A program made the translations under genes and the position numbers. The notes under the pieces are model-generated. The model was not told where the DNA came from, did no database searches, and saw only the letters and a program-made list of their open reading frames with translations. From Bacillales bacterium (lineage in GTDB: Bacteria > Bacillota_I > Bacilli_A > RFN20 > CAG-826), in assembly GCA_016287465.1 (NCBI GenBank), contig JAEEWP010000003.1, positions 1 through 44,899 of the forward strand: DNA of 44,899 nt, given 5' to 3'. This document shows, piece by piece, positions 12,454-17,691 of this stretch (position 1 is the first letter of the stretch; each line of letters begins with the position of its first letter).

Positions 12454-12954
12454 TCAAAATGCAACGTATTTTTTGGGAAAATTTTTGAAAACTTTTTCAC
12501 AGAGTTTTCCACAATAAAAAACCTTAGTATTTTTGCCGATTTGACGAACACTGAAATAGTAATTACGAAGTCAATAAGAAAAATCTCAATTTTTGACAGT
12601 GTATCAAATAGTACGAATATATTCGTTAAATAGCCGATTTTGGGGTTTGGAAATCTGAGTTTGGAGGGGAAACCGATCAAAATTTGAAAAATGACTTTTC
12701 GTTTTGATTGACGAACAAAAATGTGGAAAACTTAAAGTCCAAAAAATGCGATGGCAAATGAACATTTTTGAGGTCTGTTTTCGCTATAAATTCGTGTATC
12801 AAAAATCTACTAGTTTTTAGGGTGTTTTAATACACGCCGAAGCAACAATATTTCTTATACGCGCACACAACATATTTTTATATTTGGCATATTCATTTTT
12901 TGGAATGTCGCGCTATCATAAAATCAACAATTGTTTCGGAGGAACAATAAAAAT

Positions 12955-13668
12955 ATGGGAGACAAGAAACCAAAGAAGCCGAATGCTTTTAAGAAATTCT
13001 TTGAAGAGTTTAAGGCATTCATCAACAAAGGCAACGCTTTCATGCTTGCCGTCGGCGTCGTCATCGGCGGCGCGTTCAACGCCATCGTCACCTCACTCGT
13101 CAACATCTTGATGAGCTTAGCGACCTGGGGTGTTCCAGGAGGTCTTAAAGGACTCGTTACCGTCCTTCCAGCCTTAACTGATGCCCAAAAAGGTGCCGCA
13201 TTCCTTCAGAACGGCCAAGTCGTCAACCTTCAGTCCTTCACTATGGCCGAGGTTAACGATCGTGTTATCGAATTCGCTGCTCAGCAGGGTGTTACCGACT
13301 TAACCGTCGAAAGCGATACCTTCATCCAGTGGAAGAATTCGCTCCTCGGCCTTTATGAACAGCACGGCACTACCTTCACCTACAAGATGTCTGCCATCAT
13401 CGATTGGGGCACCTTCATCAATGCCGTAATCGCCTTCATCATCATTGGCTTAACCCTCTTCATCATCGTTAAGATCGTCAACAAGATCGAAGCCAAGAAA
13501 GCCGAAGCCAAAGCTAAGGCCCTTGAGAAATACTACGAGAAGCACCCAGAAGAGAGACCTGTCCCACCGGAGGAAGGAACCCCTGAGCCAACCGAAGCCG
13601 ACCTTCTCAAAGAGATTCTCGGAGAGTTGAAGAAACAAAACGAAGGAAAAGCCAAAAAGGCTGAATAA
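12955..13668 (+). CDS. mscL: Large-conductance mechanosensitive channel with enlarged extracellular loop
   Basis: EEFKAFINKGN, LAVGVVIGGAFNAIVTSLV, WGTFINAVIAFII, LLKEI; GGAGG SD. Confidence 0.92.
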   Translation: MGDKKPKKPNAFKKFFEEFKAFINKGNAFMLAVGVVIGGAFNAIVTSLVNILMSLATWGVPGGLKGLVTVLPALTDAQKGAAFLQNGQVVNLQSFTMAEVNDRVIEFAAQQGVTDLTVESDTFIQWKNSLLGLYEQHGTTFTYKMSAIIDWGTFINAVIAFIIIGLTLFIIVKIVNKIEAKKAEAKAKALEKYYEKHPEERPVPPEEGTPEPTEADLLKEILGELKKQNEGKAKKAE

Positions 13669-13725: not shown

Positions 13726-14610
13726 TTATTTAATGGAGTCCACAATGTGCTTTGCGTAGACGCCAGCGATGTTCTTTCCGGTGATTCTTTCAATCTCCTG
13801 CAAGAAGGCATTTGAGTTGACCTCACAGAGGACTGGATTCCCGTCTTTGTCATCTAAGAGATCGACTCCGCAATAATCCAGCTTAAGGATCTTGGCGGCT
13901 TTCTCGGCGGCCTCTTTAAATAATTCTGGGAGATCTATCAGTTCGCCATGGCCGCCCTGAGCGACATTGCTTCGGAAATCGCCGTTATCGTTGCACCTCT
14001 TCATGGATGCCACGACCTTTCCGTTGATCACGATGATGCGGAAATCATGCCCTTTGCTGCTCTCTATAAACTCTTGGTATAAGTGGGCGCCGAACTTATG
14101 GCTCTTCTCAAATTCTACGAGTTCATCGAAGTTTTTGATTAAATAGACCTCTTTTCCTAAGCTTCCGTAATTGTCTTTTGCCACGATTGGGAAGGATAGT
14201 TCATTGGCCACTTCTTTGATAAAGCCGTCGTCATCGCTTCCGACATAGTTAAGTGGGGCAGAGATGGTCTTTGGCATCTTGATTCCAGCATTAGACAGAG
14301 CGATGTAGGTTAGCATCTTGTTATCGCAAAGCCTGATCGCCTCCGCGCTATCAAAAAGCTTTATGCCGGCCTTCTCGAGCATGTAGGCGACATATTCATC
14401 CTTATCTAAATACAAAACGAAGTCATATTTGGACATTTCTGAAGCCAAAATATCACCGTTTGATCCAATTAAAGCCAAAATTTCGGCGTTGGTTTTGTAG
14501 TCTAACGAAACGCCTAAAGAACCCAGTTCTTCTTTCATTCTTTTGTAGTAGTGAATAGACGCTGGAGTTTGGATATAAGCGTTCAGAATCGCTAAGCCAG
14601 TCTTTAACAT
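13726..14610 (-). CDS. RimK/LysX-family ATP-grasp ligase
   Basis: CDNKMLT, FPIVAK, GSLGKEV, YQEFI, DFRIIV, DFRSNVAQGG, GVDLL, CEVNSN. Confidence 0.88.
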   Translation of the reverse strand: MLKTGLAILNAYIQTPASIHYYKRMKEELGSLGVSLDYKTNAEILALIGSNGDILASEMSKYDFVLYLDKDEYVAYMLEKAGIKLFDSAEAIRLCDNKMLTYIALSNAGIKMPKTISAPLNYVGSDDDGFIKEVANELSFPIVAKDNYGSLGKEVYLIKNFDELVEFEKSHKFGAHLYQEFIESSKGHDFRIIVINGKVVASMKRCNDNGDFRSNVAQGGHGELIDLPELFKEAAEKAAKILKLDYCGVDLLDDKDGNPVLCEVNSNAFLQEIERITGKNIAGVYAKHIVDSIK

Positions 14611-14659
14611 CTCAACAATTTTATGATAACTAGCAAAATCTTCAATACATTACGAAAAA

Positions 14660-14675
14660 TGACAGTATAATGTCA
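14660..14675 (+). promoter_or_regulatory. Palindrome overlapping the nadE -10 box
   Basis: TGACA-gTATAa-TGTCA encloses TATAAT at 14666-14671. Confidence 0.65.
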
Positions 14676-14689
14676 AAGAGGTAATTATT

Positions 14690-16792
14690 ATGAATGACAT
14701 TAAACCAATCACATTACTACGAAATACGGATAAGTTAAGGAAGGAATTAGAGGAGAACGAAGGTAGGATTATTATCACCAAAAATGGCCAAAAAGACTTC
14801 GTTATCCTAACTGACGAGGCTCACCAGAAACTCTTGAATGAAGGGGGATCTACTAAAGAAAAGTCAAGATTTGCAAGGATTTCTGGCAAAAATGAGCTTA
14901 GTGACCCGCTTGGTTATGTTAAGGTTGCAGCTCAATCGATCAATGTAGAGATTGCTGGAATCACCCACAACAAAGAAGAAATAATCAAGGCTGTTAGCGA
15001 GGCAAACAGTGAAGGTGTCAAAATTCTTGTTTTGCCAGAATTATGTCTTACTTCTGCCACTTTAGGTGATTTGATATTCAGCAAAACAATCGAAGAATTG
15101 GTTGAGAAAGCCCTTGTTGAGCTTAAAGAAATCTCAAAAGATAATGACCTTCTATTCACCGTTGGCGCTCCAATCAAAACCAATGGAAAACTTTATAGTT
15201 GCGGTGTCGTTTATTATGGCGGAGAGATCCTTGGTATCGTTCCAAAAGCCTATCCATCTGACAATAGATATTTCTCTGAGGGACCGAAAGAGGGTTACAT
15301 CAATCTTCTTGGAGAAAAGATCCCATTTGGAACCAATTTGATCTTCGTTGACTCTAATTACCCAAAACTCAGAATCGCTGTTGAGCTTTCTGAAGACATC
15401 TCCAACATTGAGGTCCCTTCCGCGAAAGCGTCACAGGCAGGCGCGAATGTCATTCTTAATTTATGTGCCACGCCTACACTTATTGGCTCGGCCGAATACA
15501 CGACAAGCCTTTTGAAGACGGCTTCAGACAAAATGACTGCCGCCTACATCCTTGCCAACGCTGGTGATGGCGAAAGCACCACCGACATGATCTTCGGCGG
15601 CCACAACATCATCACCGAGAACGGAAAAATTCTTTGTGAGTCAGCCCCATTTAAGATGGAAAAGGCCGTTTCTGAAATCGACATTGAACTTCTTGAGGCC
15701 GAAAGAAACAGAAACCATTCATTCAAAGCCAAATACGAAAACGATTATCAAACGATCTTCTTCTCGATGCCTTTGGAAACTCCTAAAGCGTTGACCCGTC
15801 ATTACGCGAAAAATCCTTTCATCCCAGAAACCAAAGAAACTGACCTCGAAAGAGTAAATCTCATTCTCACCATGCAAAGCATGGCCCTTGTGAAAAGACT
15901 CAAAACCGTCCATCAGAAGAAAGTGGTCTTAGGTTTGTCTGGCGGTCTTGATTCAACTCTTGCGCTTCTCGTTTCCGTAGAAGCCTTCAAAAAACTTGGT
16001 TATGACCTGAAAGACATCATCGCCATCACTCTTCCGTCATTCGGAACAAGTAAGAAAACGCATAACAACGCAGTCCTTCTTTCAGAATCACTTGGCGTCT
16101 CCTTCCGCGAAATCAACATCGGAGAGTCGGTGCGTTTACATTTCAAGGACGTTGGGCACGATGAACAAAACCACAATGTCGCCTATGAGAACGCCCAAGC
16201 TCGCGAGAGGACCCAAGTATTGATGGATCTTGCTAACGATGAGGATGCTTTGATGGTCGGCACCGGCGACTTAAGCGAAGCTGCTCTTGGCTGGTGCACC
16301 TATAATGGTGACCATATGTCCTTCTATGACCTCAACATCTCCGTTCCAAAGACTTTGGTTAGATATGTTGTTGAGGGATATGCGATCATGCATCCAGAAG
16401 CGAAGACTGCTTTGCTTGGTATCATCGACACACCAATCAGCCCAGAGCTCTTGCCACCTTCCAGTAAAGGAGAGATCGTCCAGAAGTCCGAAGATAAAGT
16501 TGGGCCATACGAACTCCAGGATTTCTTCATTTTCCATTATCTCCGTTATGGATTCTCACCGAAGAAGCTCTATTTCCTTGCGCAGCAAGCCTTCAACTAT
16601 AAGTACGACAACGAGACTTTGAAGAAATGGTTAGGAACCTTCTTCAAGCGTTTCTTCCAGAGCCAATTCAAGAGAAACTGCACTCCTGATGGCATAAAAA
16701 TCGGCACCGTTGGTCTCTCACCTAGAGGTGACCTTGTGATGCCAAGTGATGCAATTTGTGAGGATTATCTTAAAGAAATCGAATCACTCTAG
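14690..16792 (+). CDS. nadE: NAD+ synthetase (glutaminase plus synthetase architecture) with N-terminal Phd/YefM-like domain
   Basis: Nitrilase-like domain (VLPEL, GIVPK) and synthetase motifs SGGLDST, ENAQARER, GTGDLSE, GWCTYNGD, ISPELLP, QFKR. About 70 extra N-terminal residues. Confidence 0.95.
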   Translation: MNDIKPITLLRNTDKLRKELEENEGRIIITKNGQKDFVILTDEAHQKLLNEGGSTKEKSRFARISGKNELSDPLGYVKVAAQSINVEIAGITHNKEEIIKAVSEANSEGVKILVLPELCLTSATLGDLIFSKTIEELVEKALVELKEISKDNDLLFTVGAPIKTNGKLYSCGVVYYGGEILGIVPKAYPSDNRYFSEGPKEGYINLLGEKIPFGTNLIFVDSNYPKLRIAVELSEDISNIEVPSAKASQAGANVILNLCATPTLIGSAEYTTSLLKTASDKMTAAYILANAGDGESTTDMIFGGHNIITENGKILCESAPFKMEKAVSEIDIELLEAERNRNHSFKAKYENDYQTIFFSMPLETPKALTRHYAKNPFIPETKETDLERVNLILTMQSMALVKRLKTVHQKKVVLGLSGGLDSTLALLVSVEAFKKLGYDLKDIIAITLPSFGTSKKTHNNAVLLSESLGVSFREINIGESVRLHFKDVGHDEQNHNVAYENAQARERTQVLMDLANDEDALMVGTGDLSEAALGWCTYNGDHMSFYDLNISVPKTLVRYVVEGYAIMHPEAKTALLGIIDTPISPELLPPSSKGEIVQKSEDKVGPYELQDFFIFHYLRYGFSPKKLYFLAQQAFNYKYDNETLKKWLGTFFKRFFQSQFKRNCTPDGIKIGTVGLSPRGDLVMPSDAICEDYLKEIESL

Positions 16793-16824: not shown

Positions 16825-17691
16825 ATGAAAAAGAAAAAAGAAGAAGTTCAGTCTGAACAGCCAGAGTTAGAACAGCCAGAGTTAGAACAACCGGTTGAAG
16901 AACCGAAGGAAGCTGAAGAACCAAAAGAGGTCGAAGAAGCTTCTGAACCTGTCGCCGAAGAAGAGGAACCAAAGAAGGAAAAGAAGGGAATGCCTCTTGT
17001 CCTTAAGTTCATCATCTTTGAGCTCATCACCCTCATCATCGCTTTAGGCGCACATTTCTGCTTGCTCCAGTTCGTTGCTCCTCTTATGGAATTAAACGAA
17101 GTCTTGGAATGGGCGATCATGACAGTCGGCGCATTTGTACTTTACTTAGTCGCCGGTTATCTCTTTAACCATCTCATCGTCTTCAAAGGCAAAGGAAAGA
17201 CCACTTTCCCGAAATTCCTTTTGAGCGCTTTCCTTGGATGGGTCATCTGCATGGCACTTATCCATCTTGGCGTCTTCCTTACTAAACTTATCGTTCCAAC
17301 CAACCCTCTCCATTACAGCCTTACCGCTCTTAGCATCGGCCACGTCATCGCTCATGGTGGCAAATCCACCCCAAGTGGACTTGGAATCCTTGCCATCGCT
17401 CTTGTTATCACGATGGTCTACAGCTTCTTGATCAGATACTTCTTCGTCTTCAGAGGCGAGAAAGCCGTCAAGAAAGAAGAAGAGGTCGTCGAAGAAGAGC
17501 CAAAGGAAGAGAAATATCTTACCCACGCTTCCTTCCGCCAGATCGTCAAAGAGGAACTCGACAAGTTCTATACATCAAAGAAGAAATACGTCTACCATAG
17601 CCAAGCTCAATCCATCATCGATGAAGAAATCGATGTGTACGATAAGAAGCACGGCAAAAAGGAAGAAGAGAAAAAAGAGGAAGAAAAATAA
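16825..17691 (+). CDS. GtrA-like membrane protein with Glu/Lys-rich termini
   Basis: Four TM helices with YLFNHLIVFK and YSFLIRYFFVF, the pattern seen in GtrA proteins. Confidence 0.6.
   Translation: MKKKKEEVQSEQPELEQPELEQPVEEPKEAEEPKEVEEASEPVAEEEEPKKEKKGMPLVLKFIIFELITLIIALGAHFCLLQFVAPLMELNEVLEWAIMTVGAFVLYLVAGYLFNHLIVFKGKGKTTFPKFLLSAFLGWVICMALIHLGVFLTKLIVPTNPLHYSLTALSIGHVIAHGGKSTPSGLGILAIALVITMVYSFLIRYFFVFRGEKAVKKEEEVVEEEPKEEKYLTHASFRQIVKEELDKFYTSKKKYVYHSQAQSIIDEEIDVYDKKHGKKEEEKKEEEK
16855..16893 (+). repeat. 15-bp coding tandem repeat (EQPEL)
   Basis: GAACAGCCAGAGTTA twice exactly, plus a degenerate third unit. Confidence 0.85.

Follow-up and report, generated by a model that had tools for sequence, protein, structure and literature searches.

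The window analysed here, a stretch of 44,899 nucleotides from a Bacillales bacterium (contig C43 of an assembly of 96 contigs and 1.27 Mb, with a completeness of 95%), carries at positions 14690..16792 of the forward strand an open reading frame (ORF) of 700 amino acids, starting with MNDIKPITLLRNTDKL. Its product is the nicotinamide adenine dinucleotide (NAD+) synthetase NadE, the sole NadE of the genome, since a genome search returned no second match to the protein. The reading favoured here, to which a probability of about 0.65 is given on the basis of sequence comparison, is that this nadE gene is a chimera, a full NAD+ synthetase gene to which a Phd/YefM-type antitoxin has contributed promoter, operator and N-terminal domain, and that the resulting NadE represses its own gene. 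The original prediction, made from the letters of the window, had proposed an antitoxin-like domain and a palindrome at the promoter; the present evidence exceeds it, in that the putative operator has homologues in front of free-standing antitoxins from this subfamily. The features of the gene are the following:

14660..14675, no strand: operator-like element, TGACA and TGTCA with centres 11 bp apart (TGACAGTATAATGTCA), enclosing the –10 box.
14666..14671, + strand: probable –10 hexamer TATAAT of the nadE promoter, positionally homologous to the –10 box between the arms in relatives.
14676..14682, + strand: Shine-Dalgarno sequence AAGAGGT, 7 nt before the ATG at 14690.
14690..14839, + strand: Phd/YefM-fold domain, residues 1-50, a predicted dimerisation and DNA-binding unit (PF02604 matches, profile search, AlphaFold2, Foldseek).
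14840..14905, + strand: flexible linker, residues 51-72, of low identity and low predicted local distance difference test (pLDDT) values.
14906..16792, + strand: NAD+ synthetase body, residues 73-700 and stop codon (NF002730, PF00795, PF02540).
14960-15700, + strand: glutaminase (CN_hydrolase, PF00795) domain, residues 91-337, from Pfam.
15884-16318, + strand: core of the NAD_synthase (PF02540) domain, residues 399-543, from Pfam.

Residues 1 to about 50 are a genuine Phd/YefM-fold domain, as had been read from the pattern of the N-terminus. In an alignment (A1) of the first 57 residues of 21 fused proteins and three short relatives, all 24 members match PF02604 at E<=0.1 (best 1.2e-10), and some fused clusters carry a precomputed PF02604 annotation. 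The comparison with PF02604 that had been proposed as a check came out positive for these homologues and fell short for the window copy taken alone, which matches over residues 12-41 with an E value of 0.0016 and 18.6 bits, below the Pfam cut-off of 29.8. When the A1 profile was searched against the PDB, Mycobacterium tuberculosis Rv2865 was found at E 1.4e-4, followed by E. coli YefM, phage P1 Phd and RelB chains. An AlphaFold2 model built on A1 (pLDDT 79) shows a strand (residues 4-6), two helices (7-11 and 13-22), two further strands (26-31 and 34-40) and a last helix (42-52). A Foldseek search of this 57-residue model against the PDB placed Phd/YefM-family chains in the top 12 ranks and in most ranks below, with template modelling scores of 0.5-0.7 and all E values above 0.1; the top ranks include Phd with its operator, a Nitrosomonas prevent-host-death protein, YefM-YoeB and RelB2.

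The residues of the domain are strongly kept. Across 29 fused proteins, down to 41% overall identity, P6, I7, R11, K31, N32 and G33 are invariant, and T8, T13 and T30 are conserved in at least 90%. Additionally, the domain was modelled as a homodimer with ipSAE scores of 0.43, 0.43 and 0.44 in three runs, versus 0.00 for the best of three controls, which may reflect likeness to the solved Phd/YefM dimers; among proteins of solved structure, 20 of 30 homo-pairs and 1 of 23 single chains attain the mark applied, 0.42. The runs share at least 91% of their contacts, with a partner pLDDT of 71, and the modelled interface comprises strand 3 (residues 35-42), helix 3 and residues 7-20 of helices 1 and 2. 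R11, followed by N or D, closes helix 1, and in the modelled dimer residues 10-11 of one copy touch those of the other. The correspondence of R11/N12 with Arg10/Gln11 of Staphylococcus aureus YefM was inferred from their position in the helix1-turn-helix2 motif, because a PDB search with a single free antitoxin (L061), which retrieved only Rv2865 (E 0.57), gave no residue-by-residue alignment. The C-terminal toxin-binding segment of antitoxins is absent: helix 3 is followed by the unconserved linker, which bears no likeness to the conserved tails of the 87-residue free-standing relatives. The fused NadE, having neither tail nor toxin, is not an antitoxin by function.

The ORF runs from this domain into the enzyme in frame and with no internal methionine between residue 1 and the NadE start, exactly as originally described. 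The sole in-frame alternative start is a TTG at codon 49, which is not retained by a related strain (14834 T>C and 14836 G>A in its contig). The NCBIfam model NF002730 (NAD+ synthase) matches residues 74-699 with 714.2 bits (cut-off 473), over profile positions 10-672 of 677. Glu, Lys and Cys residues are the mark of the nitrilase-type glutaminase and an SGGxDS loop that of the adenosine triphosphate (ATP) pyrophosphatase; in the 29 fused proteins E117, K186 and the SGGLDS motif (417-422) are invariant, and C234 is conserved in at least 90%. By these matches, residues 73-700 are predicted to form a complete glutamine-dependent NAD+ synthetase of the NF002730 / PRK02628 type. Between the two parts, the linker measures 13-36 amino acids, with one case of 60, among 37 fused proteins. 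Mean pairwise identity over 37 full-length fused proteins is 0.547 in the domain, 0.141 in the linker and 0.58 in the enzyme. In the full-length model the enzyme has pLDDT values of at least 90 from about residue 71, the domain 59-77, and residues 52-67 less than 50; because of this profile, the domain is taken to be a conserved unit tethered flexibly to the enzyme.

The fusion is no artefact; it is old and under selection, the domain being as conserved as the enzyme (0.547 versus 0.58), unlike the linker. In a survey of 41 genomes, namely the window's own and 40 relatives, a fused NadE (match starting at query residue 1-5) was found in 20 of the 25 genus members, the window's own counted, and in 4 of the 16 genomes that represent other families of the order; a domain-less NadE, starting at about query residue 68-111, was found in one further genus member and in four genomes from elsewhere in the order. 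The fused frames were confirmed by translation. A protein search restricted to residues 1-75 returned 8 clusters of 700-703 amino acids, and the same residues searched against 1.84 billion representatives gave 16 matches, mostly fragments of the same fusion; two of the 16, the repeat protein P0010 and the surface-repeat protein P0021, were taken as chance or low-complexity matches. A search for longer proteins found 90, nearly all of about 700 amino acids with PF00795 and PF02540, placing the fusion in about 80 clusters, for which the public source names are only 'NAD(+) synthase' or 'NAD+ synthase (glutamine-hydrolysing)'. Moreover, a scan of one genome per species with a second alignment (A2, narrower than A1) gave 80 loci from named metagenome-assembled genomes (MAGs), 28 of which are fusions. 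The credible labels of the fused loci are Bacilli, Erysipelotrichaceae, Anaeroplasmataceae, Coprobacillus and Clostridium sp. CAG:288; several of the remaining ones are clearly mistaken. Five MAGs with a near-identical Bacilli-type locus (L033, L035, L038, L040 and L045) are labelled Faecalibacterium prausnitzii, Escherichia coli, Sodaliphilus, Hallerella and Bacteroidaceae, labels that look unreliable.

In a quick tree of the enzyme body, comprising 43 rows and leaving out L043, L049 and L104 (less than 600 amino acids) as well as L076, the fused forms of the genus make up one group of 29 rows, and the subgroup of the window (L001-L006, proteins 64-95% identical) nests within the clade of the genus. 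With the A1 profile, applied in six frames to about 1.5 kb on each side of six unfused nadE genes, no separate Phd gene was found beside them at E<=1.

It might be supposed that a mis-called start, a frameshift or a chimeric assembly has joined a small antitoxin gene to nadE, and two short proteins do look chimeric or truncated, P0029 and P0009 (126 amino acids, the first 72 residues 96% identical to the query and the rest unrelated). However, the fused frame is uninterrupted in 48 loci of different assemblies, with 40 distinct upstream regions, besides the roughly 80 clusters, and a good ribosome site precedes the first ATG. A DNA contig from an independent gut metagenome (X1, 671 nt) spans 14465-15135, across the junction, with 0 differences, and a second contig, X15 (235 nt, 15 differences), from the RNA library of a related strain, spans 14734-14968, bridging domain, linker and enzyme. 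These contigs were available as assembled sequence, which carries no transcript ends; the RNA libraries may hold DNA, and the uncovered stretches in X9, X15 and X17 have no meaning. An artefact was rejected on the number of independent assemblies, the comparative data having already refuted it, and its probability is practically nil; the doubt whether the fusion might be unique to this assembly is settled by the genus survey, the MAG loci, the clusters and contigs X1 and X15.

The same N-terminal domain followed by unrelated sequence or by another Pfam domain (nucleotidyltransferase, DUF285, FMN_bind, GrpE) was seen in P0009, P0029 (264 amino acids), P0054, P0088, P0104 and P0105. All six stand on contigs of about 1-3 kb and may be chimeras, truncations or further fusions.

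The other 52 of the 80 scan loci are free-standing relatives of the domain, the closest of which are antitoxins of 87 amino acids from Clostridia. An overlapping next ORF of about 100 amino acids is present in 33 of the 52, and it proved to be a ParE_toxin in all five that were tested. The promoters of these free-standing genes (n=52) share the consensus TGTACATAATTATGTTATAATAATGTACA, in which two TGTACA cores 23 bp apart surround an extended –10 box. The arms covary by locus, as in CGTACAC...GTGTACG, CGGACG...TGTCCA and TGCTCG...TGAGCA. Because the paired arms change together in individual loci, this element is read as a palindromic binding site and not as a promoter alone.

Thirteen of the 52 (L054, L055, L057, L058, L063, L075, L082, L086, L087, L091, L105, L107 and L111, match at about 3001 in each) are proteins of 130-138 amino acids from Oscillospiraceae/Clostridia MAGs, which have the same Phd-type domain, a C-terminal part of about 80 residues and the same TGTACA...TGTACA promoter-operator. 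The only C-terminal part that was scanned, that of L057, is DUF2007-like (PF09413, E 0.0012, below the cut-off). The next gene is hisB-like in 5 of the 13 loci, PF00475 being confirmed for L057 only. In these proteins the cassette looks to have been captured a second time. The genome of the window has a Phd/YefM antitoxin of its own on contig C26 (L031, 983-1623, – strand), with 73 amino acids and 30.6 bits to PF02604, overlapping a PIN toxin of 140 amino acids (PF13470, E 9e-17). This antitoxin lies beyond the reach of the subfamily profile at E<=1, and at the same threshold the profile matches nothing else in the genome, in which, at 95% completeness, no ParE_toxin was found.

The upstream regions of the fused nadE genes were compared with these antitoxin promoters by means of a position matrix trained only on 48 de-duplicated free-antitoxin promoters and scanned over whole fused loci (2.5-6 kb, both strands). 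In 28 of 40 de-duplicated loci, the site that scored best in the entire locus lay upstream of the fused start, at offsets –27 to –42; the same site came top on the other strand in 4 more, and in 1 more the top hit was at –16, giving 33 of 40. At unfused nadE loci, the upstream site was top in none of six (scores –3.5 to –20, ranks 4-108). Since the antitoxin matrix comes top in 33 of 40 fused versus 0 of 6 unfused loci, nadE captured the domain together with the putative operator of the antitoxin. The expectation that an upstream element would accompany the fusion was thus confirmed, the conserved unit being a pair of TGNCA with a free centre.

A typical fused upstream region reads A-GACA-TAATTATG-N-TANAAT-NA-TGNCA-TG. 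The cores are TGNCA, with one base lost relative to TGTACA and any central base, and in most relatives their spacing is 22 bp. Fused upstream regions (n=40) were compared, in windows of 64 nt, with the rest of the loci (n=6399): the pattern G.CA-N17-TG.CA occurs in 18 of 40 versus 19 of 6399, TG.CA-N6-TG.CA in 6 of 40 versus 14 of 6399, and CATAATTATG with at most one mismatch in 27 of 40 versus 47 of 6399. Five related genomes were searched for the 26-nt element with up to two mismatches; each has a single copy, at nadE, and none has the reversed control. Of the only 8 copies of the arm-less core AATTATGNTANAAT in these five genomes, 5 stand at nadE; the remaining three are promoters of the ordinary kind and lack arms, before a release-factor-like gene (two) and a membrane protein (one). 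Because the proteins are only about 52% identical, the likeness of the upstream regions is beyond what is expected for unconstrained intergenic DNA.

In 26 of the 40 fused loci a leaderless nadE mRNA is implied, TAnAAT ending 6-9 nt before the ATG with no Shine-Dalgarno sequence. At loci of this type (e.g. L007-L019, L035-L052), the right operator arm overlaps the start codon (ATGNC-ATG). A leader with a Shine-Dalgarno sequence is present in 12 of 40, among them the subgroup of the window with AAGAGGT, and 2 of 40 are ambiguous. In a scan of the window's whole genome with the antitoxin matrix, the best hits are C47:6304 (+) with 19.8 bits and C96:3306 (–) with 15.3 bits, both of which look like extended –10 promoters.

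The window itself belongs to the minority with the shorter spacing. The TGACA-N6-TGTCA palindrome that had been reported over the –10 box is indeed present at 14660-14675 with TATAAT inside it; its exact symmetry is not conserved in the relatives of 95% identity. Five distinct loci of the subgroup read TGACAgTATAaTGTCA (window), TGACAgTATAaTGACA (two loci, the 95% relatives), TGACAtTATAaTGACA and TGTCAtTATAaTGACA, and the T>A change at 14673 recurs in an RNA-library contig of another strain. All five retain the two pentamers, with a central base that varies between A and T. Because the pair is kept while its centre flips, the window palindrome is one allele of a predicted TGWCA-N6-TGWCA element. 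The step from 22 to 11 bp, a single event and hence no more than suggestive, amounts to one whole helical turn, with both sites on the same face of the helix. The window element is a compressed, weaker version of the putative antitoxin operator, akin in position and flanks to the TGNCA/TGTACA arms of relatives, and takes its meaning from its position and its relatives, not from its sequence alone.

Put together, the proposed autorepression would proceed as follows. According to the dimer model, two N-terminal domains may pair via strand 3 and helix 3, which would bring their helix1-turn-helix2 motifs side by side, each with its R11. From the YefM structures, each dimer would be expected to read one core, TGTACA in the free antitoxins and TGNCA in the NadE fusions. 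The oligomeric enzyme body would replace the toxin as the scaffold that holds two dimers, and these would sit on cores one turn apart (11 bp, window) or two turns apart (22 bp, most relatives). As the –10 box and the transcription start lie between or under these cores, their occupancy would block RNA polymerase and NadE would repress its own gene, the outcome being a simple negative feedback on the amount of NadE.

A number of observations weigh against this autorepression. The fused loci are mutually related, so that the counts given above are enrichments and not independent trials, and in 7 of 40 fused loci no top matrix hit lies upstream. The change from GTAC to GNC in the fusions alters the spacing of the two guanines that an Arg pair would read. 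Other points concern the window: its domain alone is weak, with 18.6-19.3 bits (E down to 0.00099) versus the cut-off of 29.8; its 95%-identical relatives read TGACA-N6-TGACA, which is no strict inverted repeat; and TATAAT at 14666 has no canonical –35 box, the promoter scan having paired none with it. TGNCA-N6-TGNCA occurs once in the window versus a shuffle mean of 0.62, with at least one copy in 47 of 100 shuffles, which is within chance, and 13 times in the 1.27-Mb genome versus an estimate of about 19 made in this analysis; one other of the 13 copies has A/T centres, and an A+T-rich spacer is found only in the window element. The antitoxin matrix fails on the subgroup of the window, where the site scores –8.5 and ranks 7 in the window and ranks 3, 2 and 10 in L002, L003 and L006, and a scan of the whole genome with this antitoxin-trained matrix did not find the nadE site of the window. 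Because of this failure, the link of the window's operator with the antitoxins rests on geometry, the right arm and the similarity of the ribosome site. In addition, RNA-library contig X17 crosses the intergenic region at 14552-14705, unlike an mRNA starting near 14678; it may be a divergent transcript or carried-over DNA.

Several of these points would suit a different account, according to which the promoter and start were captured and the domain is a passenger, a dimerising or stabilising appendage that does not bind DNA. Besides the loci that lack a top upstream hit and the weak palindrome of the window, the degenerate core of the fusions (TGNCA instead of TGTACA) speaks for it, and an additional dimerising domain could serve assembly, glutamine-dependent NadE being oligomeric. 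Nevertheless, the residues important for DNA reading in YefM-type proteins are kept, with R11, K31, N32 and G33 invariant and T8, T13 and T30 at 90% or more, and paired arms at whole helical turns (11 or 22 bp) around the –10 box are found across proteins of about 52% identity, in an element unique in each genome. A passenger domain would not keep an operator, and this account is considered unlikely, less so for subgroups with degenerate sites, as in the 7 of 40 loci lacking a top hit. Far less probable still is that the palindrome belongs to another regulator, of the NiaR, NrtR or NadR type or another Phd protein, and that the fused domain serves, for example, as a decoy for a toxin encoded elsewhere. 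A second Phd-family gene does exist in the genome, with its PIN toxin on contig C26, but this antitoxin is too distant for the subfamily profile (E<=1), and the element, which resembles the operators of the domain's own subfamily, occurs once per genome and only at nadE, so that no regulon motif is seen. The NiaR 3H domain (PF02829) had no match in the 95%-complete genome, with control matches in Bacillus subtilis and Thermotoga maritima, NrtR, NadR and NadQ not having been searched for; nor was a ParE toxin found there. As for a decoy, the fused domain is without the C-terminal toxin-binding segment and the linker is unconserved.

The remaining alternative extends autorepression instead of replacing it, and the doubt expressed here applies to its sensing step, which is regarded as possible but somewhat improbable. 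NadE would be a metabolite-responsive trigger enzyme, in which nicotinic acid adenine dinucleotide (NaAD), ATP, glutamine or NAD switches operator occupancy via the conformation or oligomeric state of the enzyme, so that nadE transcription would follow NAD demand. The architecture parallels the PutA, BirA and NadR fusions, this is the only NadE of the genome, and no NiaR-type regulator was found in it. Furthermore, in the YefM-YoeB complex the partner bound to the tail changes the geometry of the N-terminal domain and its DNA affinity (PMC7544224). On the other hand, the sequence data carry nothing on a ligand response, the unconserved linker, predicted to be disordered, argues against a rigid allosteric connection, and concentration-dependent feedback suffices for everything seen. 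A still more speculative version, held to be unlikely, is that a toxin-antitoxin operon was rebuilt as a NAD homeostat, in which the NadE body is a corepressor scaffold whose geometry shifts with NaAD, ATP or NAD and the often leaderless nadE transcription tracks NAD demand, the cassette having been captured more than once (DUF2007-like, near hisB). Simple autorepression through the captured domain and operator is retained as the preferred explanation.

The surroundings of nadE contain no adjoining toxin gene, in agreement with what had been stated from the sequence: the neighbours are a RimK-like gene upstream and a membrane protein downstream. Two features belong to the upstream side:

13726..14610, – strand: RimK-like ATP-grasp gene, 294 amino acids (PF08443 RimK, E 3.2e-40), divergent from nadE.
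14618..14645, – strand: sigma-70-like promoter candidate for the RimK-like gene, TTGAAG-16-TAAAAT, a consensus match only.

The sigma-70 consensus scan gave 2 sites versus 0.9 expected in shuffles. nadE and the RimK-like gene flank a common intergenic region of 79 bp, and the same divergent arrangement is found upstream of nadE in many relatives; the nadE operator could act on both divergent promoters, that of nadE and that of the RimK-like gene (13726-14610, –). The downstream membrane protein (16825-17691, +) carries repeats rich in Glu, Lys and Pro (EQPELEQPELEQP...) at either end and shows no more than a weak GtrA-like match. Additionally, the MscL homologue encoded at 12931-13668 (+), with 245 amino acids, has a long Lys/Glu-rich C-terminal extension past its Pfam match, whose best stretch covers residues 23-99.

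The proposed chimera would illustrate a route from a selfish toxin-antitoxin module to a housekeeping use, in which the promoter, the operator and the DNA-binding domain were kept and the toxin was replaced by an essential enzyme. If the domain does bind this DNA, it would represent a fifth, unrelated type of NAD-biosynthesis regulator and a new class of enzyme-repressor fusion in widespread uncultured gut Bacilli with small genomes, as well as a natural test of the idea that the role of the toxin in cooperativity is mainly to bridge dimers. If the NAD-homeostat version were true, antitoxin modules would repeatedly have supplied metabolic genes with autoregulation in ready-made form. Because the public records say only 'NAD(+) synthase', the feature is invisible to users of annotation.

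No description of a Phd/YefM-NadE fusion was found among the papers listed by full-text searches, supplements being outside the scope of the search and the combination probably being listed in domain-architecture databases. In a survey of the NadE family, a term search of the main text returned no 'antitoxin', 'DNA-binding', 'N-terminal extension' or 'additional domain' (PMC3376133). Published work on YefM and Axe describes autorepression through two TGTACA cores spaced by 12 bp, where the footprints extend over the –10 box (PMC1802561, PMC7730913). In S. aureus, each YefM dimer places an antiparallel helix1-turn-helix2 pair in the major groove, the GTAC core being recognised by Arg10-Gln11, and joint binding of two adjacent cores comes about through the toxin, which connects two dimers of YefM (PMC7544224). 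The N-terminal domain of NadE resembles YefM, Axe and Phd in the order of its fold elements, in its family profile and, here by comparison only, in the paired short palindromic cores over the –10 box of its own promoter; the modelled homodimer via strand 3 and helix 3 may be a further likeness. Unlike them, it has neither a toxin gene nor a toxin-binding tail, and a 628-residue enzyme is attached instead. The fused nadE cores are TGNCA at 11 or 22 bp, versus TGTACA at 12 bp in the published YefM and Axe cases and at 23 bp in the free relatives. Moreover, with domain and enzyme covalently attached 1:1, a toxin:antitoxin ratio no longer exists as a control variable.

On the enzyme side, the protein is like the NadE of M. 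tuberculosis (PRK02628 type), with a full-length match, both domains and conserved catalytic and ATP-binding motifs, and differs from a standard glutamine-dependent NadE in its 72-residue N-terminal extension with a DNA-binding fold. Trigger enzymes that combine a DNA-binding domain, placed N-terminally, and an enzyme in one polypeptide, with an operator on the promoter of their own pathway, include PutA (ribbon-helix-helix and proline dehydrogenase), BirA (helix-turn-helix and biotin ligase) and NadR (helix-turn-helix and nicotinamide mononucleotide adenylyltransferase), the last of which shows that NAD biosynthesis is controlled by an enzyme-repressor fusion elsewhere. The fused NadE is like these enzymes in carrying both activities, as predicted, in one polypeptide. 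In common with NiaR, NrtR, NadR and NadQ, it would exert transcriptional control over a NAD-biosynthesis gene, whereas it shares no domain with them and its element, present once per genome, defines no regulon. It stands apart from PutA, BirA and NadR in that its putative DNA-binding domain derives from a toxin-antitoxin system, whose operator it brought along, and in that no target other than its own gene was found.

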